From the IMG/VR virus record IMGVR_UViG_3300011116_000416, positions 21,615 through 85,614 of that record: DNA of 64,000 bases. The stretch is one strand, 5' to 3'. Below, piece after piece: positions 2,748 to 64,000 of this stretch (position 1 is its first letter; each line of letters opens with the position of its first letter). Origin of the DNA: a virus. The notes under the pieces were generated by a model. That model saw only the letters and a list, made by a program, of their open reading frames with translations. It was not told where the DNA came from and made no database searches. The position numbers and the translations under genes were made by a program.

Positions 2748-2802
2748 TTGACAATTATACCATAATAAGTGGGCAGTTTTTAGTCATACCCAGGACCGCT
2801 AA

Positions 2803-4061: not shown

Positions 4062-4291
4062 TCTTCTAGTGCCTTTCTAACCACAAAGACAACAGTTCCA
4101 AAAGACTCTAAAGTTCTCTTTACATCGTTTACATATTTTACAGCATCTAGTTTAGCTTCATCAGATAGTTTAATTAAATCTTTTGGGTCAACTTCTACTG
4201 TAATAAAATCTGGATTTTCGTATAGAACAACTCCAAATCCTTCTGGTGCCTTGATTGCTTTAAATGCAGATGCCATTTCTGGTGTATACAT
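4058..4291 (-). CDS. hypothetical protein
   Basis: 77 aa ORF with overlaps at both ends. Confidence 0.65.
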   Translation of the reverse strand: MYTPEMASAFKAIKAPEGFGVVLYENPDFITVEVDPKDLIKLSDEAKLDAVKYVNDVKRTLESFGTVVFVVRKALEE

Positions 4292-4581
4292 CAGTATTCC
4301 TTATCTGTTGTTAGATATTGCCAGGTGTTAGCCCAGTCTTGCTTTGTCTTATGTTTATTAAATTCTCTGGATACTTTACCCTTATCAAGATAAATACCGC
4401 CCCAAACCCCATAAGCCTTTTGGGATACTCCAACTGCAAAACATATTCTAGCCATAGGACAAATTGAACAAAGAGAGTCAATCTCTTTTCTTACCTCGAC
4501 ATCTTCTTCATATTTTTCAAAGAATAGTTCGACATCTTCCCCAGCACAAATTGCTTCGTCTTTCCAATTCTCATTCGGCAT
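4291..4581 (-). CDS. whiB: WhiB family Fe-S transcription factor
   Basis: W...A.C, C..C.....C (4 Cys) and GVWGG turn. Confidence 0.93.
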   Translation of the reverse strand: MPNENWKDEAICAGEDVELFFEKYEEDVEVRKEIDSLCSICPMARICFAVGVSQKAYGVWGGIYLDKGKVSREFNKHKTKQDWANTWQYLTTDKEY

Positions 4582-22751: not shown

Positions 22752-22960
22752 TACTTACTTTCTGTTTCTTCTACTGCTTCTGCAACTTTTTCAGATAGCT
22801 TCTGCTCTACAAAAGCATAAACACGCTCAAATGCATCGTTTGTATTTTCACCTTCACGCTTATTATCTGATACAGATAGGTCAATACGCAGGGATTGAAA
22901 GTTGCCTAGATTAAGCGTATAGCCTAGCCCAACTGTTACTTTAGTGTTGTCGTTTTCCAT
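22751..22960 (-). CDS. small conserved phage protein
   Basis: V.LGYTLNLGNFQSLRID motif; SD spacing favours ATG at 22960. Confidence 0.7.
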   Translation of the reverse strand: MENDNTKVTVGLGYTLNLGNFQSLRIDLSVSDNKREGENTNDAFERVYAFVEQKLSEKVAEAVEETESK

Positions 22961-22981
22961 TATTCTCATACCCTTTCAAGG

Positions 22982-26480: not shown

Positions 26481-29400
26481 TTACACTACCTCACTTACAT
26501 ATACTAGCATACTTAATCCAGTTTCGTTTTTGCTATGTTCAATTCCATATACAAGAAATTTTGAATTTGGGGATACTTCAAATACATCAGAGCCTGGATT
26601 TGTATAGTTAATTTGAACGATATCTCCCAGTTGCAAAATTGGTAAACCAAAAACATCTATACCCAATACTTGTCTTGGTTTTCTTAATTTATTAATTGTC
26701 CAATCCATAAGTCTATATGCTGTATCGTAGTTTTGAATATATGGTGAATCGATTGTAAACGATTTTGTTCCATATGTTAATCTACTATTTTTAATATCAG
26801 TATATTGCTTTTTGTAAGAGTTTGGGTCTTCTCCAAAATTAAGACCATCATTATAAGATAGGTCGCTTCTCTTAAGGTAGTATTCATCTACCGTTAAATC
26901 GTGAGTTGATTCTTGTGTAAACGCTATTCCTAGAATTCTTAAATAATTTCCAGATGTTGCGTCTAATGAAAGTGCAGAATCAGTAGCGTTAAATACTAAA
27001 AATTCTGCACCATATGGATTATCATTATATCCAGAAACAACGTATCCTCTTTCACCAGTAAATGTTGGTGCAATTTTAGAAAATAGTGCTGGATAAGCTT
27101 TTTCAAATCTAACATTAAAATAAGCCATCTCTCTCATAATTGTTCCAAATTCTTCATAGTATATTGTTGGTGCTGGTTTTCCAGTTGTTCTAATTCCGCT
27201 CAAAGCTGTTGATTGCAAAATTCCACTAAGAGCATATCTATTTGTAGAAATAGTTGCTGAAGATTCTCTAAAAATTGAATTAACTAATTTTATATCCTCT
27301 GTATTGTTGGCGGTTGTGTCTACTGCAAATACGTTTTCAAACATTACTTTTGAGGAACCACGAATAAACAAGCCAACATTTTGAACAAGAGGCAATGGAG
27401 AAGTATCTTCTACTGTGTCGATAAGACTATTATTTAGGTATATATAAAATTTTCTGCGATTACCTACTGTGAGCTCTTGTTCTGCTTGAACCGATAGGTC
27501 GTATACCGTTGGGTTTTGTTCTGCAGATACCCTACCCTGACCCACAAACTGACCATCATCTGTAATGATTGACCTTAAAGAACTAGATAACAATATTGGT
27601 TTTAAGACACCGTTAGTTTTTTGTAACTTTGTGCTTGAAAGTGCAACATAATTGCCATTCTCTGTGGATGGTGATTGTCCAGTTAGTCTGACATAATCTC
27701 CAGCGGTAACTCCAGAAATTGCAGAAGATGCAGTAAAAATATCTCCGCTTAAACTTCCAGCAATATTATCTTTTGTTATTTCATAAGCCACTAGCTTATA
27801 AAATAAAACATTATAAATATCACTAGCAGATGTTATTCCTGTAAGAATTGGATTGCTGTCAGTTAATGCTATGATTTCATAGTAATATCCCTCTCCAGCT
27901 GCATTTGTGTAAAATGACATACCGCCAGACGAACCACCCAAAACCGTAGTTTTGTTTTTAGAATTTGTTAGAGAATATATGTCTATGCTTCCATTTGGAA
28001 ATTGTTTCGATGATGAAGATTCTTTATTTCCAATAATTCTCATTCTGGTTCCAAACGTATCGTATTTTGAGCCAGAAGATGTTAAATTTTTAGTGATTCT
28101 ATTAATTGATGCAGATGCAGAGCTATCTAAAACAAAGCCAGCTCCAGAGAATACCAAACTTGATGATTGCAACATATCTGTAGATGTGTCATATTTTTGT
28201 GTAGACATATTGTATTTTAGTGTAGATAAATAATTTTTAATTGCATAAGTTGCTGTGCCTAATTTTGTTAATGCAGACACATTTTCTGTTATGTTGGTAG
28301 ATTTTTCTTCATTAAACACGTTTGTATAGACACCAGTATTTTCGTTTTTCTTTACATTAAATAAAAACTGGTAGTCGTTCAGGGTTGATTTTATTGTAGA
28401 TGTTTGCCAATCTGTAATATTTGAACTTATTAAATGGTTGGTTATTGTTGTTCCAAATTGACCTCTACCGTGTTTTGCAACATCTCCTTCTTTTAACTTT
28501 CCATCTCTAGTCCATCTAGGTTCTGCATAAATTCTAACTTTTCCAGTCGGATACATTCTTCCACCTGCAGGTAAACTAGCAAAATATTTTTGATAATCTT
28601 CTGTACTTGTAATAAATACTTCATTGTTTAAATAAGCTGTTCCAGATGTGGTTATTGCTCCTGTTGTTGTAGTTTTAAACTTAAATTGTGTTAAATTTGG
28701 AACTGCTGTAATTGTTTGAACTCCACGATATCCAATAGGAACCACATCCATGATTACTATTTCATCCCCAACTTGCAAGTTATGATTTGCGGAAGCAGTA
28801 AAAGTAACTTCTCCAGCTACTGAAACTATGCTAGAGTTATTTGCTGGTGTAATTGATATTGGAGAATTTGGAGATGTTACGTTATATTGTATTGCATCAT
28901 ATTTTATAATTTCACCATTTGCATAGAAATATCCGTTATATCTACTCAGCCAGTAAACGCCATCCCCAAATTCAATGATATTGTTTACAATTTGTCCCTT
29001 ATTGTTTACCTGTGGTACTGAACTCCTTAATACTGCGTTTAACGGTACCGCACTTAAAACATAATTTGATTGAGTGGATAGCTCTTCATTAATGCTTTTG
29101 GTAGTTTGTTCTCCAGAAACTTCCCAAAGTAAAACTGGCTTATATCTCCAAATCCTATCTTTATCTAATTTACTTGCTTGTGTTAATGAACTTATAGATT
29201 TTTGAATATATCTATTTTTATAAATAACCTTACCATCATTAAAGATGTCTTTATTTTCACCTTTTAAATTTATTATATTTGCTTTAATTCCATTTGATAA
29301 ATCATCGCCATATAAAACTATGTTTGTGTCCCTAACATTGCTTGTTTCTGGAACCAAAAATTGTTTGCTCATACAAACAAAATTATTGTCCTCGTCAAAA

Positions 29401-31241
29401 AACATTGCTGTTTGCGTAGAAGTAGCTAGGTCATTTAAAACTTCCATTATTGTTTTGTCTGGTGGTACAAAAAAGTATGGAATAACTGGGTCATATTCCC
29501 CAAAAGCCCTTTTAAAAATATAATTTGTAAATCCAATATTATCTAGCAAAGTTGCTATAATTTTGCTTAGAGTTGCATTATTTAACATAATTCTAGGTGC
29601 TAAAATTGATTCGAAATAAAATGACAAATCTCTTAAATTAAAGGTTACTTCTCTATTTGCATTATCGTATTGAGGATATCCGTCTGTATACATTGTTTTA
29701 ACTGGTAGCATATAGTCTTTAAAACTTGACAAAACTGGAACAGATATCACAGACTCGTAAAACTTAAGTTGTAAATTTTTACTTGCAAAGGTAAATTGTA
29801 ATTCATCTCCTGCATACTTATTTAATATACTAAATTTATTATTTTGATTAAATGCCTGGCTAAAATCAAATAGACTCATTTGTCCAGTTGAAGCTAAAAG
29901 CTGCCCTACTGGAAGGCTTGTCAAGCCGATGTCTGAAGCCATTTTCTTTATTGAATACGACACTACAATATCTGAAATGTCTGCTGTTAATCTTGGAGAA
30001 AGCTCAATCAGGTCAAAGGTTGTATTGACGTTCTTCATTTTTGTTACAGAAAGTCTTAATCCATCGACATAATCGAACTGTCTATATACCCTTGTAGAGT
30101 TAGACATGTAATAATCTACTTTATCTGTTCTATCTTCGGTATCTGTTTTTGGAACTATAAAATCTGTTACATATTGCTGTGTGTTTGTAACAGTTTGTGT
30201 ATTCTTATACCATCCATAGTTAGGAACAACCTGCTCCCAAGAATCTCCATCCCAAATATGTAAAGTTCCAATGCTTTGGTTTGTTGCCTTTAATAAATAT
30301 GCAAAGCCCTTTTCTTTGTCGGATAGATTTGGCAACACAAAATTAGAAGAAACATTATCAATTAATTTAAAATTATTAGTGTATGCAACTGGAATATTTG
30401 TAATTCCATAAGATAATTCTAGATATCCATCTGTTGGAAAATCATCGCCTCCGTTATAAACTGTTGTCCAGGTTGTACCAACCAACTTTTCTAGCTTCCA
30501 TTCAACTGGGGTTGATTTATAATTTGTTGCAGAGCCAGACCAAAATGGGTCATTCGTTCCATCTGGCTTAAGGTCTAGTTTAATATCTCCGACATTTGTT
30601 TGAACCTTAATTACGACTCTATTTGCTGGAATTGAATTTTTATATTTAACAAATGGTGCAACATCTTCAATAAGAAATTCACCAGACTTATTGTAAGAAA
30701 GACCAACAATTTCGGTATCACTTGGTTTAGATAATGATGTTATTCTTCTATAGGAAGACCAGTATTTAAATATATCATCTTTTCCAGCAACATAATATCT
30801 TGGTCTAGAATAAGTTGTTTCATTTGTTGGTGGTATTTTGTTATTAGCATCAAATCTTAACTTATTAATTCCAGAACGTGGTCTAAATCTAGTAAAACAT
30901 GACTCTAGTGACATGAGTAATTTTTGCTGGTCATTTTGCTTTAAGAAAATGGCTGGGGTACTACCATCTTCTTCATAGCCACCATCTATCACTGTATCAT
31001 AGTCTGTTCCACCATAATATCTTGGACTTGTTGTGTTTTCATCCTCTAAAACAAAAGTTGTTGGTAATGTGGCATATGTTGAAACATATCTAGAACTAGC
31101 TGTATCATGTCTATAAAAATAATTACCAATAACATCCAGATTTTCAAATATGTTTAGATTCCATTCGGCAATTATTTTACTTTTTAATTCTACAACACTA
31201 GATGTTTGCAGATGATTTGTTAAATCACTATCTGTATACAT
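26481..31241 (-). CDS. large tail-tip / hub protein
   Basis: About 1586 aa, second gene after TMP; C-terminal LQLGDIV.I.Y motif; start by TAATG overlap. Confidence 0.7.
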   Translation of the reverse strand: MYTDSDLTNHLQTSSVVELKSKIIAEWNLNIFENLDVIGNYFYRHDTASSRYVSTYATLPTTFVLEDENTTSPRYYGGTDYDTVIDGGYEEDGSTPAIFLKQNDQQKLLMSLESCFTRFRPRSGINKLRFDANNKIPPTNETTYSRPRYYVAGKDDIFKYWSSYRRITSLSKPSDTEIVGLSYNKSGEFLIEDVAPFVKYKNSIPANRVVIKVQTNVGDIKLDLKPDGTNDPFWSGSATNYKSTPVEWKLEKLVGTTWTTVYNGGDDFPTDGYLELSYGITNIPVAYTNNFKLIDNVSSNFVLPNLSDKEKGFAYLLKATNQSIGTLHIWDGDSWEQVVPNYGWYKNTQTVTNTQQYVTDFIVPKTDTEDRTDKVDYYMSNSTRVYRQFDYVDGLRLSVTKMKNVNTTFDLIELSPRLTADISDIVVSYSIKKMASDIGLTSLPVGQLLASTGQMSLFDFSQAFNQNNKFSILNKYAGDELQFTFASKNLQLKFYESVISVPVLSSFKDYMLPVKTMYTDGYPQYDNANREVTFNLRDLSFYFESILAPRIMLNNATLSKIIATLLDNIGFTNYIFKRAFGEYDPVIPYFFVPPDKTIMEVLNDLATSTQTAMFFDEDNNFVCMSKQFLVPETSNVRDTNIVLYGDDLSNGIKANIINLKGENKDIFNDGKVIYKNRYIQKSISSLTQASKLDKDRIWRYKPVLLWEVSGEQTTKSINEELSTQSNYVLSAVPLNAVLRSSVPQVNNKGQIVNNIIEFGDGVYWLSRYNGYFYANGEIIKYDAIQYNVTSPNSPISITPANNSSIVSVAGEVTFTASANHNLQVGDEIVIMDVVPIGYRGVQTITAVPNLTQFKFKTTTTGAITTSGTAYLNNEVFITSTEDYQKYFASLPAGGRMYPTGKVRIYAEPRWTRDGKLKEGDVAKHGRGQFGTTITNHLISSNITDWQTSTIKSTLNDYQFLFNVKKNENTGVYTNVFNEEKSTNITENVSALTKLGTATYAIKNYLSTLKYNMSTQKYDTSTDMLQSSSLVFSGAGFVLDSSASASINRITKNLTSSGSKYDTFGTRMRIIGNKESSSSKQFPNGSIDIYSLTNSKNKTTVLGGSSGGMSFYTNAAGEGYYYEIIALTDSNPILTGITSASDIYNVLFYKLVAYEITKDNIAGSLSGDIFTASSAISGVTAGDYVRLTGQSPSTENGNYVALSSTKLQKTNGVLKPILLSSSLRSIITDDGQFVGQGRVSAEQNPTVYDLSVQAEQELTVGNRRKFYIYLNNSLIDTVEDTSPLPLVQNVGLFIRGSSKVMFENVFAVDTTANNTEDIKLVNSIFRESSATISTNRYALSGILQSTALSGIRTTGKPAPTIYYEEFGTIMREMAYFNVRFEKAYPALFSKIAPTFTGERGYVVSGYNDNPYGAEFLVFNATDSALSLDATSGNYLRILGIAFTQESTHDLTVDEYYLKRSDLSYNDGLNFGEDPNSYKKQYTDIKNSRLTYGTKSFTIDSPYIQNYDTAYRLMDWTINKLRKPRQVLGIDVFGLPILQLGDIVQINYTNPGSDVFEVSPNSKFLVYGIEHSKNETGLSMLVYVSEVV

Positions 31242-31876
31242 TATGCCTCCTCTAGTGTCATTTGTATATTCCACATATCGTAATTTGTTCTACCACGTTT
31301 TTCTACGGACCATGTGAAATTTGTTATATACATTTCCAATCTTTCATTATATTGTGTTAGTTTTGTAAAAGATGATGCATCTTTATCTCCACTAACACCA
31401 GCAACAGGAAATTCTGCATAATTGTCATATGCTAAAAAGACCCAAAAGGTTCCATAATGATTGTTGTACCAATCTAAAAGTTCTACTCCACCTGCTCCAC
31501 CATCAACTGTATATTCATCTACCGTGCTAGTTGGTGCACCTGTTGTTGTATTAAAATTAGGGTCTGAGCTATATGCTCTAGATGGTAGCATTTGCCAGCT
31601 AACAGAGAGCTGTCTTTTATCGGCTACCCAATAAGAACGCATACGACCGTTAACCATACGCTGACGATTTTCAATTCTTTGAACGTTAAAATCTAAAGCA
31701 CTTCTGTTATGGTCAGAAAGTATTAAAAAATCTCCATTATTATTTGAGGCGTTTCCTATTTCAAGACCATCTGGAACATAAATACCATTATCAATAGAGC
31801 CAGAACTTTCTGAAAACAGAATAGCTTGAGGTCTTGGGTAGGACTTTCTACCATTGATATATCCTGAAGTAGCCAT
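31241..31876 (-). CDS. distal-tail-like protein
   Basis: Directly after TMP; R..NGRMR....DK...SW..LP motif; ends TLEEA. Confidence 0.65.
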   Translation of the reverse strand: MATSGYINGRKSYPRPQAILFSESSGSIDNGIYVPDGLEIGNASNNNGDFLILSDHNRSALDFNVQRIENRQRMVNGRMRSYWVADKRQLSVSWQMLPSRAYSSDPNFNTTTGAPTSTVDEYTVDGGAGGVELLDWYNNHYGTFWVFLAYDNYAEFPVAGVSGDKDASSFTKLTQYNERLEMYITNFTWSVEKRGRTNYDMWNIQMTLEEA

Positions 31877-52069: not shown

Positions 52070-54109
52070 TTAATTTTTATCTGGAATTTTGATTTCACAG
52101 TAATCGGTGGTACAATAGGCTTCGCCTTGTGCTTCCAGATTATCTACTCCATCATAAATAGCAGAGAAGTCAATCTTTGCTAGTCTTCCAATGTAGTAGT
52201 CATATTCTTCTTCTGTGATTTCTGTATATGGTTGCTGTGGATAGACATCGTTACCCATTGATAGGAATGATACCGCCTTTAGCTGACCTTCATACATGTT
52301 CAAAACAGAAGTGATATGCTTTGTTTCCTTTTCCTTGTCAAATGACAGGGTTACAGAAACTCCGTTGTCTGACCAATACTTCTGAGCAGTAGCAGCAAGT
52401 GCTGTCTTCTCAAATAGAGTAACATCCTTTTCTGCTCTCTTGTGTCCAGATGCTATTGGGAAATACACTACGGAGGTATTTGCTGATACTAGGTCTGCCT
52501 CAATCTTATACCCTGCCGCTCTAAACAGATGTAGCATTGGGTCTTGGTTGCTAAAGCGGATTGCTCTTAAATAGAACTTTCCACCTGGACCCCAGTGAAC
52601 ACCAGGGGTAGCACCAGAAAGGATTGACACAGAACCAGATGGTTTGATGGTTGTAACACGGATTGATTCACGCACACATAGCCACTCGGAATATTTGCGG
52701 TCATAGTAGCGAATCTTGTTATATCCTTCATCCATCCAATCACGAACTGTAGGTAGTCCATGGTCATCAGCAAATGATGCGATACCAGTTAGAGATGTTC
52801 CAATTCTTCGGTTTCTCTGCATGATACCGTTTGTTTGTTGCCAGTGAGTAGGAAGTAGTGTAACTGTCTTTCCATACAGATAGGCAAACTTTAACGTACG
52901 CAAGAAGTCTTCCTTAGATTCGTGACGATTTAGGTGAACTTCTACAAGCGTACAAAGCTCGTATGATTCTAGTGGCTGTTCTGCACATGGGTTAAATCCC
53001 ATAACACGATAGTCTTTACCATCTGCAGGGTCTGCCAAACGACCATAGTTGCGAGCAACATCTAGCCAGATAAATCCTGGTTCTCCATTATCTGCAATGC
53101 GGTCAACATACTTTGAGTAATCCATTCCTACTGTTGCAGAAACAGAGTTATTTGACATCCAAGCCCATCCAGGATTCTCAGGGTCATATGAGTTACGCTC
53201 TGGGAATACTTCTGGATTCTTTAGATTTAAGAAGTCATCGTCACTCTCTGCTCCTAAAGCTAGGGTAGCAGAACGTCTAACGTTACCAGATACTACACAA
53301 GTGCCAATTAGGTTTACTAGGTCTACGATGGCACGAGCATCAAGTACCTCGCCAATACGCTGTCCTAGAACATGGCTAATCTTTTCGTGTAGTTTGATTA
53401 GTGGTCCAGGACCTGATGCAATACCGCCAAATCCTTTGATTGGGGCACCTTCTGGTCTAATTAGCGAATAGTCAAACTTCTGGATATTCTGACCTTGACG
53501 AAGATATGAGTTGATTAGCAATCTAGTTGCTTCTACCCAGCCTTCACGAGTGTCTGGTATTTCGTAGATAACTTCTGGCTCTGTTGGTCCATAGATTACG
53601 AAGTTCTTGTCTTTTCCAAGTGTATCAAAGCCAACTCCAATACCAAGCATAAGAGCATCCATAATCCAAGCAAATAGGGCACCTGGGTCATTCTTGTCTA
53701 GGTCTTTAGTAGATACCATGGCACAATTCTGCAACGCTGCAGAGTTACGTTTTTCCATGGTTAGCTGTGTTCCAAATGTCCACATACCACGACCTGGTGG
53801 TGTCCATTTTAGGTTAAACATTCTATCGAATGCCTCCTGTGCTGATTTCTGTGCCTTATAGTCATTCCAAGGGAGACGATTCTCCTTTGCATGGTTTTTC
53901 TGGACAGAATACATACCTTCAATAACTCTGCGTACTACTTCGTACCAGCGTTCTTTAGTTCCGTCATCTTTGACTCGTGAGTAGGTGCGAACAAAGGTAA
54001 TTTCACCTAATGCGTTGCCACCTGCATCCACGAATCCAAAGGGAGATTCCAGGGTTTTGTACTTTTCGACAAAATCTGCTGGGAGTGTAAATGAGAAAAA
54101 ATCTGACAT
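52070..54109 (-). CDS. nrdJ: class II (adenosylcobalamin-dependent) ribonucleotide reductase
   Basis: PPGRG, NCA, GNVRRSA, NPCAEQ.L...ELC, TTIKPSG, C-terminal CTTDYC; no nrdB or nrdG nearby. Confidence 0.92.
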   Translation of the reverse strand: MSDFFSFTLPADFVEKYKTLESPFGFVDAGGNALGEITFVRTYSRVKDDGTKERWYEVVRRVIEGMYSVQKNHAKENRLPWNDYKAQKSAQEAFDRMFNLKWTPPGRGMWTFGTQLTMEKRNSAALQNCAMVSTKDLDKNDPGALFAWIMDALMLGIGVGFDTLGKDKNFVIYGPTEPEVIYEIPDTREGWVEATRLLINSYLRQGQNIQKFDYSLIRPEGAPIKGFGGIASGPGPLIKLHEKISHVLGQRIGEVLDARAIVDLVNLIGTCVVSGNVRRSATLALGAESDDDFLNLKNPEVFPERNSYDPENPGWAWMSNNSVSATVGMDYSKYVDRIADNGEPGFIWLDVARNYGRLADPADGKDYRVMGFNPCAEQPLESYELCTLVEVHLNRHESKEDFLRTLKFAYLYGKTVTLLPTHWQQTNGIMQRNRRIGTSLTGIASFADDHGLPTVRDWMDEGYNKIRYYDRKYSEWLCVRESIRVTTIKPSGSVSILSGATPGVHWGPGGKFYLRAIRFSNQDPMLHLFRAAGYKIEADLVSANTSVVYFPIASGHKRAEKDVTLFEKTALAATAQKYWSDNGVSVTLSFDKEKETKHITSVLNMYEGQLKAVSFLSMGNDVYPQQPYTEITEEEYDYYIGRLAKIDFSAIYDGVDNLEAQGEAYCTTDYCEIKIPDKN

Positions 54110-60948: not shown

Positions 60949-61895
60949 TCTTTAATCCTTTGTTCACTACTATTATACCATTTAGCCTGTTGATACATAA
61001 CTGCCATAGGCTCTCCCCAAGCATCATTATCCTTAAGTATGTCAACGGTAATGTCTGTTATTTTTAAGGCTTTTTCACACCACTCTAAACATTCCTGCCA
61101 TCTCTCATGTTCTGCGTACCACTTTGCAATATAGTAATATGGTTCACGCCTGTCTGGTGCTTCACCTAAGCAATACAGCATGTACTCGGTAGTTTTTTCG
61201 GGTATGATTCTTGAAAGAATTCTATAGACATGTGCAGAATCATATTTGCTAAATCCAGGTACTTCCATCATTCTCAGATAGTACTGTTCTGCTTCTTCGA
61301 ATCTCTTCATTGACACTAGGGCATCCGTATAGTATTTATAGTATCTTGTAATATTTGGGTTTTCATCTAATGCCGCTTTGATTAAGTCTAGATATTGGCT
61401 TCTAGGTTTATCTCGATTTGGTATATGGGTTACTTCTATGGTGGGACAGAATTCTATAATAGGCTCGGTTCTGTCTTGTACGATACCTTCGTGCATTAGG
61501 AATTTCCAGCGGTATCCGTGTCTAGAATGAATGCGGTTATTAACAAAACTATATTGTTCATGGTCGTTGTTAAAGACATAGGTGATTTGGTTGCCAGTCA
61601 TTTTTTCTAATTCTGCTCTCCAACCCTCAGAAATAACTTCATCCATGTCAAGAGATACGCACATATCGATATCGTCTGGTATAAGAGCTAGGGCTGCGTT
61701 ACGAGCATCATCAAACCTGAATGGCTTGATTGATAAATTAAATACGTTGATTCCAAGAGACCTGGCTATTTCCACGGTACGGTCAGTAGAGCCTGTATCG
61801 CCAATAAGAATATAATCGGCATCCTTAACAGAGTTATACCATCTCTCGACAAACTCTTCTTCATTTAGTGCAATTGTATAAACTGCAATTCTCAT
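60945..61895 (-). CDS. GT2 glycosyltransferase with a TPR-like C-terminus (paralogue)
   Basis: IAVYTIALNE, DTGSTD, RFDDARNAAL, SLDMDE; P.RRE.Y TPR motif. Confidence 0.9.
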   Translation of the reverse strand: MRIAVYTIALNEEEFVERWYNSVKDADYILIGDTGSTDRTVEIARSLGINVFNLSIKPFRFDDARNAALALIPDDIDMCVSLDMDEVISEGWRAELEKMTGNQITYVFNNDHEQYSFVNNRIHSRHGYRWKFLMHEGIVQDRTEPIIEFCPTIEVTHIPNRDKPRSQYLDLIKAALDENPNITRYYKYYTDALVSMKRFEEAEQYYLRMMEVPGFSKYDSAHVYRILSRIIPEKTTEYMLYCLGEAPDRREPYYYIAKWYAEHERWQECLEWCEKALKITDITVDILKDNDAWGEPMAVMYQQAKWYNSSEQRIKE

Positions 61896-61909
61896 ACCCA
61901 AATCTCTTT

Positions 61910-62548
61910 CTATGATGCTGAAATATATGTTCCGTTAACGTAAAGTCTACTAACAGTTGTAAGTGTTGTTGGATTACCCTGAGACAAAATTGTTTCGATA
62001 ATTGGCTTAGGGTTAGATGTTGTTGCCATTAGCCAGTGAAAATCTAGCGTTGACGAACCAGCAATGTGGTCAGCTGCAATCTGAATATGTCCATTTAAGT
62101 CATCTGGTGGCAATGCTGGATTAGCCCACAACCAACCAAAGAAGTGATTTGATGATGTCGCTAATGCTGGAAATGGTAGGTCAACCTTAAACTGACCAGT
62201 ACCAAAGTTGGTTACTGTAGTAAAATCTATTTGAATCCAAAAAGAAACAAGCTGTCCAGATTTTACATAGTAAGAATTATATGTTGGATATGTTGTTCCA
62301 GAGCCTGTAAAGGTCAGACCTGTTGCTTGAAAGGTTGGAGACCATCGAACTGCGGTTGGTGGATTTGTCCACTGTGTATTGTAGTCAGTTCCGTTTACTT
62401 TTGTAAGAAACTGTCCAGCGGTACCTCCAGCAGGGACACCAGGTCCAGTTGGTCCAGTGGCACCAGTTGGTCCAGGTTGACCAGCAGTCAAAACTGTTTT
62501 AACAACAGCACTTTGCGTAGTATCTGGGACAATCTTGATGGTTGTCAT
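61910..62548 (-). CDS. collagen-repeat fibre protein
   Basis: GQPGPTGATGPTGP, GG..GQ.L.K....DY...W linker, C-terminal Y.K.G.LV..DLPF domain. Confidence 0.75.
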   Translation of the reverse strand: MTTIKIVPDTTQSAVVKTVLTAGQPGPTGATGPTGPGVPAGGTAGQFLTKVNGTDYNTQWTNPPTAVRWSPTFQATGLTFTGSGTTYPTYNSYYVKSGQLVSFWIQIDFTTVTNFGTGQFKVDLPFPALATSSNHFFGWLWANPALPPDDLNGHIQIAADHIAGSSTLDFHWLMATTSNPKPIIETILSQGNPTTLTTVSRLYVNGTYISAS

Positions 62549-62940
62549 AGAGCACTTCCTGTGATATCAGGTCTGACGACAATTGTTCCTAGAATCGGTG
62601 TCCACTTTTCTCCAGAAATAGTTACCTGTAGGTCAAAAATAAGCTCGGCGACAATAGAGGAACTTCCTGTGCCCCAATCGTCTGTCATTGTGCTAAGAGC
62701 ACTAACTGTGACGTATCCAGCACCAGATGTTGTAGTCAAAGTATATTTGGTTGCTGTTTTAGGGTCATAGGCACTTGATGCAAATGTCCATCCTGTGGTA
62801 TTCTTAGCAGTAACACCATCGTCTTCATAGAATTCAAAGGTAGTGGAAATATCGTCACCACGAACTATATTCCATTTAACGTTTACAGGTTCAGCACCGA
62901 TACTAATCGGGGAATTTGAAGAGCAAGTTGAACAAGACAT
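62545..62940 (-). CDS. BppU-like fibre-anchoring protein
   Basis: I.RGD....F ... FDLQV......T...G...V..DIT pattern; leaderless start at 62940. Confidence 0.6.
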   Translation of the reverse strand: MSCSTCSSNSPISIGAEPVNVKWNIVRGDDISTTFEFYEDDGVTAKNTTGWTFASSAYDPKTATKYTLTTTSGAGYVTVSALSTMTDDWGTGSSSIVAELIFDLQVTISGEKWTPILGTIVVRPDITGSAL

Positions 62941-62959
62941 ATAAACATTATACACCATA

Positions 62960-63017
62960 AATAAGGAACCAGTGCCTGAAAGTGGGTATGAGAGAGATAT
63001 TCAGACACTGGCTCTAT
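62960..63017 (-). ncRNA. candidate small hairpin RNA with its own promoter
   Basis: 15 bp stem with two G-U pairs on the minus strand only, 19 nt loop, TGATATAAT at 63023-63031. Confidence 0.5.
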
Positions 63018-63106
63018 GATAGATTATATCATTTTTAATGGGTTTCTGTGTTTTATTTGACAAATTTGAAAAAGTGTGATACCCTTTTAATACCTTTTGG
63101 TTGGGG

Positions 63107-63170
63107 ATATATAATATATATAAATATATTAATATATAGTATAGTTTTATATATAAATAATAATAATCAA
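63107..63170. other. extremely AT-rich tract (TA repeats), candidate origin unwinding element
   Basis: atatataatatatataaatatattaatatatagtatagttttatatataaataataataat in an intergenic region. Confidence 0.35.
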
Positions 63171-63460
63171 AGTTCGGTTTTTTCTGACTTGCTTTTCTTT
63201 TGTGTTTTGACACCATCTGTAATAAGAACATTATATAGATTATCTATCTTCTCTTCTAATCTATTGGTTTTTTCTTCTAGCCTAGAAACCTGGTCTTTCA
63301 TTGATGACCCATGATTAGGTTTTAGCTCTGACAAGTCTTCTTTAAGTTCGGTTGATAGGACTCTAAGTTCAGCGGTAACGAACCAACGGATTCCGCCAAC
63401 GGTAATAGCAACAATGGATAATATAGTTAGTATTAATCCAGCCCAATCTGTAACAGACAT
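63167..63460 (-). CDS. membrane protein with a coiled-coil tail
   Basis: N-terminal TM helix; ELKPNHGSSMKDQV.RLE motif typical of actinophage membrane proteins; likely start 63460. Confidence 0.75.
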   Translation of the reverse strand: MSVTDWAGLILTILSIVAITVGGIRWFVTAELRVLSTELKEDLSELKPNHGSSMKDQVSRLEEKTNRLEEKIDNLYNVLITDGVKTQKKSKSEKTEL

Positions 63461-63680
63461 AATAAGATAATTATACACTACGTTTTTAGCAGTGTTTTGT
63501 GATTTTAAAAACGGTCGAAATAGAGACACCCAAACCACCAAAAACCCAAATAGGCAACAAGGTTGCCAAATGGGTCAAATAACGGTTTAAATGCCCCTAC
63601 AAGCCGTTTACATACAAAAAACATATCTCAATGCCCCCCAAATATGATATACTTGATATTCAAGCAAATTAAGGAGAGAT

Positions 63681-63857
63681 ATGCGAATAATTAAAAGAAT
63701 AAAACTATTATTTAAGTTATTCAAAAGAAACCACCAATGTACCCTGCCAAATCCTGTATACTATCATTCAAACAGCGATTGGCAATGTTTCATCTGCAAA
63801 GCATACTGGTATAAAAAGTATGACAGATACGGTGGATATTTTATCAAAAGAACCTAA
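63681..63857 (+). CDS. small hypothetical protein (not in ORF track)
   Basis: 58 aa MRIIKRIK...H.C..P...WQCFICK; AAGGAG SD and TGATATACT promoter upstream. Confidence 0.6.
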   Translation: MRIIKRIKLLFKLFKRNHQCTLPNPVYYHSNSDWQCFICKAYWYKKYDRYGGYFIKRT

Positions 63858-64000
63858 ACTTTTGTGTACCCTCCAATTTTTCATACCATCGAAATCTGAA
63901 AAAATTTTTAAAAACCAGATTTAACAAAATCTGAATATTTTGCTAAGATGTATGATATGGGTTTTACTACACACCACCCAAAACTCTTAGTGAGCACACA

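Follow-up and report, generated by a model that had tools for sequence, protein, structure and literature searches.

The window discussed here is the whole stretch of 64,000 nucleotides (nt) that was analysed, corresponding to the last 64 kilobases (kb) of the 85.6-kb IMG/VR viral record IMGVR_UViG_3300011116_000416. All its long open reading frames (ORFs) lie on the minus strand, and between a gene for a protein of 124 amino acids (aa) and a gene of the PHROG 1084 family it carries a compact unit made of a promoter-like sequence, a long-stemmed hairpin and a U-rich tract (Table 1). From the comparison with relatives, this hairpin is certainly a real, selected RNA element, beyond chance. We think that its most economical reading is that of a trans-acting small RNA, and we give a probability of about one half to the idea that it is a stand-alone small RNA acting through its loop by base pairing.

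The original prediction, made on the letters of the window, had placed on the minus strand an extended -10 element (hereafter P1), a stem of 15 base pairs (bp) with two G.U pairs and a loop of 19 nt, and all its coordinates and words were correct. P1 is separated by 8 nt from the 5' arm of the stem. The minus-strand RNA folds at -26.6 kcal/mol with a z-score of -5.3 (none of 200 shuffles equals it), whereas the plus strand reaches merely -16.8 kcal/mol (z -1.6), in agreement with the strand-specific fold that had been claimed. The stem contains GC pairs and is directly followed by a U-tract, as in an intrinsic terminator; a simple terminator scanner missed it because its limit for the loop was 8 nt. 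The predicted RNA, of about 55-60 nt, is essentially one hairpin.

Table 1. The hairpin unit and the candidate pairing sites of its loop (positions in the window)
Feature	Position	Strand	Remarks
P1, extended -10 element TGATATAAT	63031-63023	-	predicted start at about 63017-63015, 1-3 nt ahead of the stem; putative promoter
Hairpin 5' arm GAGCCAGTGTCTGAA, 15 nt	63014-63000	-	fold and covariation
Apical loop TATCTCTCTCATACCCACT (as RNA UAUCUCUCUCAUACCCACU), 19 nt	62999-62981	-	predicted unpaired
Invariant loop core UCUCUCAUACCCAC, 14 nt	62995-62982	-	sequence comparison of relatives
Hairpin 3' arm TTCAGGCACTGGTTC, 15 nt	62980-62966	-	fold and covariation
U-rich tail CUUAUUUAU (as DNA CTTATTTAT)	62965-62957	-	presumed intrinsic-terminator tract
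P2, GGTG-TATAAT, -10 element of the next gene	62956-62947	-	6 nt, then ATG at 62940; leaderless mRNA predicted
Downstream gene, 131 aa, PHROG 1084, function unknown	62940-62545	-	syntenic with the hairpin
Candidate target GGGUAUGAGA, before/over the start of the 69-aa gene (PHROG 5189)	22973-22964	-	10-nt match; duplex -18.1 kcal/mol
Weaker candidate target UGGGUAUGAGA, over the first glycosyltransferase start codon (ATG 61895)	61900-61890	-	11-nt match; duplex -18.9 kcal/mol
9-nt word complementary to the loop, UGGGUAUGA, between hsp20 and the promoter that follows	2792-2784	-	a single 9-mer is expected by chance

The element was present in all the relatives of the locus that we reached through the flanking proteins (6 loci via the downstream protein and 5 close loci via the upstream one), and a search with the 17-mer of the loop gave 39 viral loci. 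A pattern made of the stem arms only retrieved 23 loci, and the same loop was found in 23 of 23. Conversely, two half-loop patterns exposed a second subfamily of 17 loci with wholly different stem sequences, and each half-loop pattern matched only members of the family with the other half intact, plus chance matches without a hairpin. Four further diverged copies came from genomes reached via an unrelated gene; 36 of the 40 contigs obtained by this route had no match, but these are fragments, 19-74% complete, and are uninformative on absence. A pattern combining promoter and tail (TATTTATRGTGTATAAT) was too generic, since only 27 of its 124 matches had the loop, the others coming from unrelated phages. 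Altogether, about 60 contigs carry the element, at a single locus per record in the 10 records out of 10 scanned with a covariance model and in three complete genomes out of three (95-112 kb). No match to an Rfam family was obtained at E <= 1 when positions 61000-64000 were scanned on both strands with cmscan (Rfam 15), and neither the 1.2-kb region nor the element itself (101 nt) had a DNA match in the cultured-phage collection.

The loop is extremely constrained. Its 14-nt core is identical in every member save one (L336), in which two extra bases stand between the CU run and an intact AUACCCAC; variation elsewhere in the loop is limited to the length of the CU run and to 0-5 spacer bases, and in the diverged genome G432, as in L335, the loop is exactly the 14-nt core. 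This loop is invariant beside a flanking protein of only 46-54% identity, the PHROG 1084 homologue, encoded just after the hairpin in 14 of the 16 relatives examined. The two exceptions are L024 (genome G004), where a different gene stands after the hairpin, and L010, where an ORF in the wrong frame, without match to the window protein, was picked by the script.

The stem, for its part, is maintained by compensatory change. When 34 distinct sequences were aligned under the guidance of a model, 96.2% of the cells paired and both sides had changed in 12 of the 14 pairs, a result equalled by none of 500 shuffles, although an alignment fitted to the structure somewhat favours that structure; an alignment made with MAFFT only, on 23 distinct sequences, still gives compensatory change in 10 of 14 pairs. 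The 12 inner pairs include 49 G.U cells and not a single A.C cell on the minus strand, which indicates that the helix forms as sense-strand RNA and not as a double-stranded palindrome. Covariation in related phages, one of the checks put forward in the original prediction, is thus found in the stem; none is found between loop and target, which never co-vary among the about 60 loci because the loop never varies.

The elements on both sides of the hairpin are conserved as well. All 45 distinct neighbourhoods have a TGnTAnAnT word 23-30 nt ahead of the loop core, and the word is also present in G432, G438 and G441. Among the 45, P1 reads TGATATAAT in 29, TGGTATAAT in 8, TGTTATAAT in 3, TGATATACT and TGATAGAAT in 2 each and TGATACAAT in 1, and its variants TATACT, TAGAAT and TACAAT retain the consensus positions. 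A U-rich tract directly follows the stem in all members (UUUUUUAUUUAU in the second subfamily, UUUUAUUUUUUU in G432). As had been claimed, the next gene has a putative promoter of its own (P2, with TATAAT at 62952-62947), and this is conserved in relatives, 6 nt ahead of the next ATG (9 nt in some genomes). The script scored 31 of 45 neighbourhoods as having the 6-nt spacing and ten others (including the window) as lacking P2, the latter solely because it chose an upstream in-frame ATG inside TTTATGGTGTATAAT. No conserved ORF crosses the element. An antisense mini-ORF varies in length and sequence among members and was rejected as a coding sequence for this reason, so that we regard the element as non-coding. 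A pseudoknot between loop and flanks was also rejected, as only matches of 4-6 nt, not conserved, could be found.

The nature of the phage and of its host matters for what follows. Near-identical DNA is present in freshwater, river and aquatic metagenome runs from about 10 studies; no RNA run was listed as containing the stretch, although a small share of it is present in two wastewater runs guessed to be of RNA. Furthermore, the hairpin-bearing phages, of 91-112 kb, come from many lake and river metagenomes. The window encodes a WhiB-family protein (4393-4566, minus strand, in the ORF 4291-4581; 44.6 bits, above the Pfam cut-off), and its portal protein and prohead protease share 42-46% identity with those of large siphophages of Streptomyces and Rhodococcus. 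TGnTAnAAT elements are common before genes on the sense strand, and several TGnTATAAT stand exactly 6 nt from an ATG, in the layout of P2 (59903, 39537, 24006, 9496 and 2762, minus strand, and others), from which leaderless mRNAs are predicted for a sizeable share of the phage genes; such mRNAs are common in Actinobacteria. We read the host as an actinobacterium, and the phage as a low-GC freshwater actinophage, because of the whiB gene, the leaderless-type promoters and the portal protein resembling that of Streptomyces phages. Neither a tyrosine (PF00589) nor a serine (PF00239) integrase was matched in this phage (G000) or in its complete relative G001, although control genomes were matched, and since an integrase is lacking the phage is probably lytic. 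Other genes of the region may be mentioned here. A gene resembling class II (B12-dependent) ribonucleotide reductases lies at 52070-54109 (minus strand), between the portal gene and tail-fibre-like genes. In a distant relative (L053, 38% identity), the membrane/coiled-coil protein of 124 aa has a homologue in the region 1501-2300, and the gene after it is lysozyme-like, resembling family 19 glycoside hydrolases by eye only; the 124-aa gene upstream of the hairpin may be lysis-related.

Taken together, the hairpin looks like its own transcription unit, a mini-gene separate from the leader of the next gene. P1, as an extended -10 promoter of host type, would start transcription 1-3 nt before the stem, and the same stem, with the U-rich tract that follows it, would end the transcript, so that the whole RNA would be one stable hairpin with an unpaired loop. 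The invariant core would then most likely pair in trans, with no need for a chaperone; Actinobacteria lack Hfq, and small RNAs with C-rich loops work in these bacteria without any chaperone. The main argument for pairing with a nucleic acid is that the loop is constrained far beyond the needs of a terminator and over more bases than a protein usually reads, proteins usually reading fewer than 14-17 bases in an RNA loop. The best-supported pairing word is CAUACCC, which on a GGGUAUG placed over a start codon would block initiation.

Which sites in this genome could be paired by the loop? The three complementary words of 11, 10 and 9 nt listed in the original prediction are all present (Table 1). 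It had missed a 12-nt exact complement of the 5' part of the loop (TATGAGAGAGAT, at 27138-27127, minus strand), which lies in frame within an ORF of 1597 aa (26481-31274), over residues I-M-R-E, and has shorter versions at the orthologous coding site in G002, G432 and G438, as well as a further 9-mer match at 16457-16449 (minus strand). When the 120 gene-start regions are ranked by duplex energy, the glycosyltransferase and 69-aa starts are the best two, the next one being at -16.1 kcal/mol, and they are also the best among 36 hand-listed starts. Two duplexes at or below -18 kcal/mol among 120 starts have a P of 0.037 with shuffled loops and of 0.027 with genomic 15-mers, in a test that is post hoc, the sites having been chosen after they were seen. 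Moreover, the two sites are not independent, because the start regions at 61895 and 22966 have the 12-mer GGGTATGAGAAT in common. In a test by orthogroups over five genomes, the 69-aa and glycosyltransferase families again rank as the top two of 58.

The 69-aa gene, whose start is at 22960 in the orthologues, is the more attractive of the two. It lies at the head of the replication module, two genes upstream of a DnaB-like helicase, with primase, SSB and DNA polymerase. Among the 64 distinct 60-nt start regions obtained from the best 80 of at least 579 relatives, GGGTATG, the complement of CAUACCC, is the most conserved 7-mer of the start (51 of 64). The next 7-mer, which overlaps it, reaches 34 of 64 and the best one outside the motif 31 of 64; in 46 of the 64 regions the complementarity to the loop core extends over at least 8 nt. 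The ATG of the word may be the start codon, may lie in frame upstream of it or may be out of frame, and the word is kept in all three cases, which makes it a constraint at the nucleotide level. In this genome, the word at 22966 gives an in-frame ATG-AGA-ATA before the ATG at 22960, so that the gene may start at 22966. The 7 additional pairs that the original prediction had drawn after a 2-nt bulge (22974-22981) exist on paper; they need UUUCAGG, but six of these seven bases (UUCAGG) form part of the hairpin's own 3' arm, so that such pairing would require the stem to open.

We consider the 69-aa gene as the best candidate target, with about one chance in three of being a real one, and the glycosyltransferase start as a weaker, strain-specific candidate; a host target is equally possible. 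The larger scheme, in which the loop would be a start-codon-directed seed throughout a large clade of lake actinophages, occluding AUGs in a GGGU context and gating, through a single RNA of 55-60 nt, translation of the gene that opens the replication module (and of tail-fibre glycosyltransferases in some strains), seems to us doubtful. The spacer 3' of hsp20 (2748-2802, minus strand) is conserved in G000-G003 and G012 (TCCTGGGTATGAC...CTGCCCAC), and the 9-nt word UGGGUAUGA occurs at the orthologous place in G000-G003 (4 of 5 genomes) and in G012. This spacer was rejected as a structured partner, as its local fold is no better than that of shuffles (z 0.70).

A number of results weigh against pairing with phage messengers as the function of the loop, and should be set out in full. 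The three sites of at least 10 nt in the 85.6-kb genome are at the level of chance, with P(>=3) of 0.066-0.26 under four null models (0.10 with mononucleotide shuffles, 0.066 with dinucleotide shuffles and 0.26 with real sense-strand 19-mers), and no phage site pairs with more than 12 of the 14 invariant nucleotides. Complementary matches of at least 8 nt to the core are not enriched either: 483 kb of loci of the family contain 63 (about 52 expected), and the three complete genomes contain 11, 18 and 3 (about 12, 12 and 10 expected). Whole-genome duplex scans of five genomes gave only genome-specific sites or conserved sites in coding sequences. The P values by orthogroup overstate the case, because orthologous starts are similar by shared descent, and those of the glycosyltransferases are further inflated by taking the best of 2-3 paralogues. 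The 11-nt match at the glycosyltransferase does span the start codon, as claimed, but it is found in this genome only: 4 of 6 relatives keep 8 nt (GGGTATGA) and 2 of 6 less, and in G001, G002 and G012 the match is absent from the best orthologues, whose start regions are unrelated. As to the 69-aa gene, its 10-nt match is reduced in relatives to a 7-8-nt word, strongly conserved (GGGTATG in 51 of 64 regions); G004 and G432 (the latter also listed as L299) keep the loop without GGGTATG at this gene, which therefore cannot by itself explain the invariance of the loop. In many of its start regions, the ribosome-site word GAGAGAG stands 5' of GGGUAUG, whereas the loop could pair continuously with both only in the opposite order. 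Conservation at positions -4 to -1 is not unusual, since the modal 4-mer is shared by at least 62% of the members in 4 control genes out of 14; gene starts show no general enrichment of GGGT-ATG (6 of 84, the background being 6.6%), and GGGTA was not seen as a general intergenic theme. Finally, among 401 sampled Actinomycetota genomes, searched for exact complements only, just 2 contain the exact complement of the 14-mer (with 1 control match). From the trans-acting phage small RNA of the original prediction there remains a promoter-preceded, strand-specific and conserved hairpin, the loop matches being genome-wide at chance level, and its proposal that this RNA times the translation of dispersed genes we keep as an inference.

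The alternative that survives best assigns to the hairpin a role in cis. It would be a promoter-proximal terminator or leader at the head of the block of tail-fibre and structural genes, at which transcripts from P1 would normally stop, a phage or host factor recognising the loop on the nascent RNA to permit read-through, or it would insulate P2, the short RNA being a by-product. We regard this as somewhat unlikely, although much in the position of the element speaks for it: it is always directly before P2, with a PHROG 1084 homologue next to it in most relatives, the divergent early/late switch is about 0.7-1 kb upstream of it, and a block of about 60 kb of genes on one strand comes after it. 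The terminator-like combination of hairpin and U-tract would also fit, as would the fact that no convincing universal target in trans emerged from the scans made. However, P2 is retained before the next gene at leaderless spacing, and about 20 further TGnTAnAAT sites are present on the sense strand of the block, many of them before genes, so that processive antitermination from P1 is not obviously needed. An mRNA reading through from P1 would have an untranslated leader without ribosome site, and in G004 the hairpin precedes a different gene. Moreover, a stretch of 17 or 14 invariant loop bases exceeds the usual recognition of RNA loops by proteins.

A second alternative, unlikely in our opinion, is that the RNA is made and serves as a decoy or sponge for an invariant factor of the host or the phage (an RNA-binding protein, a nuclease, a host small RNA or another conserved RNA). 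It is supported by the constancy of the loop among phages in which the candidate mRNA sites differ or are absent, which suggests a partner whose evolution is not tied to that of the phage, and by the pyrimidine-rich loop being predicted as single-stranded. A bolder variant is that the loop could be tuned to an unchanging host molecule, its CAU being flanked as in the anticodon loop of methionine tRNA. Against such a partner, 399 of the 401 sampled Actinomycetota genomes lack the exact complement of the 14-mer. Scanning genome contigs with the loop 17-mer gave 15 scattered matches, and the hairpin only in L190, a phage-sized contig of 85,019 bases binned in a public metagenome-assembled genome (G006) labelled 'uncultured Bifidobacterium sp.', in which there is no other site within 1 mismatch of the 14-mer. 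Besides, the co-conservation of GGGTATG would be a coincidence if the loop were a decoy. The binning of L190 is in itself probably an artefact, or else a hint at an actinobacterial host.

That the element works at the level of DNA, as a protein-binding palindrome around a conserved core (replication origin, packaging or attachment site), appears very improbable. The surroundings of P1 do have features of this kind. A tract of A+T only, of about 60 bp, is found about 100 bp upstream, at 63105-63165, between the 124-aa gene and P1; L014 and L033 have a pair of perfect DnaA boxes (TTATCCACA) immediately before P1; and other relatives have there repeated GTAAC/ATAAC words or a near-palindrome (ATTTGTCAAAT). 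These boxes, words and near-palindrome may be operator or origin-like features. Many contigs also end near the element, but their ends are scattered within the AT-rich tract, which fits assembly breaks. The hairpin itself argues for RNA: its imperfect inner pairs are all G.U on one strand, and its arms have been replaced wholesale with their complementarity kept. An attachment site (attP) was rejected, no integrase being encoded by this phage or by the complete G001. Least probable of all is an ordinary terminator of the 124-aa gene (63541-63167), with P1 and the loop matches due to chance: the hairpin and its U-rich tract are indeed downstream of this gene, but about 150 nt from its stop; relatives have a separate small hairpin followed by T5 between gene and P1 (z -2.5 in L003); P1 is kept in all the neighbourhoods, even in L014 and L033, which differ upstream and retain both P1 and hairpin; and an invariant 14-nt loop is not expected of a terminator.

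If the hairpin is a trans-acting small RNA, as we prefer to think, it can be compared with several known systems. The best functional analogy for a host devoid of Hfq is the actinobacterial small RNA 6C (B11; Rfam RF01066), which is reported (PMC6486639) to pair with several mRNAs through C-rich loops without an RNA chaperone, and which shares with the present element the pyrimidine- or C-rich single-stranded loop of a hairpin. The phage element differs from it in matching no Rfam family, in being encoded by a phage, and in its loop word, which is an anti-start-codon CAU joined to ACCCAC rather than a run of C aimed at ribosome sites. It is also made of one hairpin, whereas 6C has several.

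Short hairpin RNAs are also known from phages. The c4 RNA of phages P1 and P7, the CI RNA of P4, the oop RNA of lambda and the sar RNA of P22 pair by their loops with ribosome-site or start regions of their own phage, and set timing or immunity. These act in or beside their own operon, whereas the candidate sites discussed here are 1 kb and 40 kb away; several of them are processed from longer transcripts, whereas the present RNA looks like a primary product running from promoter to terminator. No relation in sequence or in Rfam to any of them was found, and our phage has no integrase. The late leader of lambda, where 6S RNA is made between PR' and tR', resembles the locus in that a constitutive-looking promoter has a terminator hairpin very shortly after it, ahead of a long late block, and, as with N and boxB, the conserved loop could be a recognition element. 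The dependence on read-through that defines the lambda system does not apply, however, to a downstream gene with a conserved -10 element of its own, in a phage with many internal promoter elements. Finally, the start-associated sequences of cluster K mycobacteriophages are short conserved words at or before the start codons of a subset of genes, for which GGGTATG, at the 69-aa family and at some glycosyltransferases, would be the counterpart. Here the word is at only two or three gene families per genome and is not enriched at starts in general, and these genomes themselves encode a complementary RNA loop.

Most of what is known about small RNAs encoded by phages comes from phages of enterobacteria, and to our knowledge almost nothing is known of control at the RNA level in actinophages, above all where uncultured phages of abundant freshwater lineages are concerned. 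The present hairpin adds a compact and very strongly constrained putative RNA gene in freshwater phages of Actinobacteria. If it is a riboregulator, it would offer a defined seed-target pair, CAUACCC against GGGUAUG at a start codon, and a handle on how the replication and structural genes may be scheduled in hosts without Hfq. If it is instead an antitermination site in cis or a decoy, its invariant loop would mark a conserved contact between these phages and their hosts.

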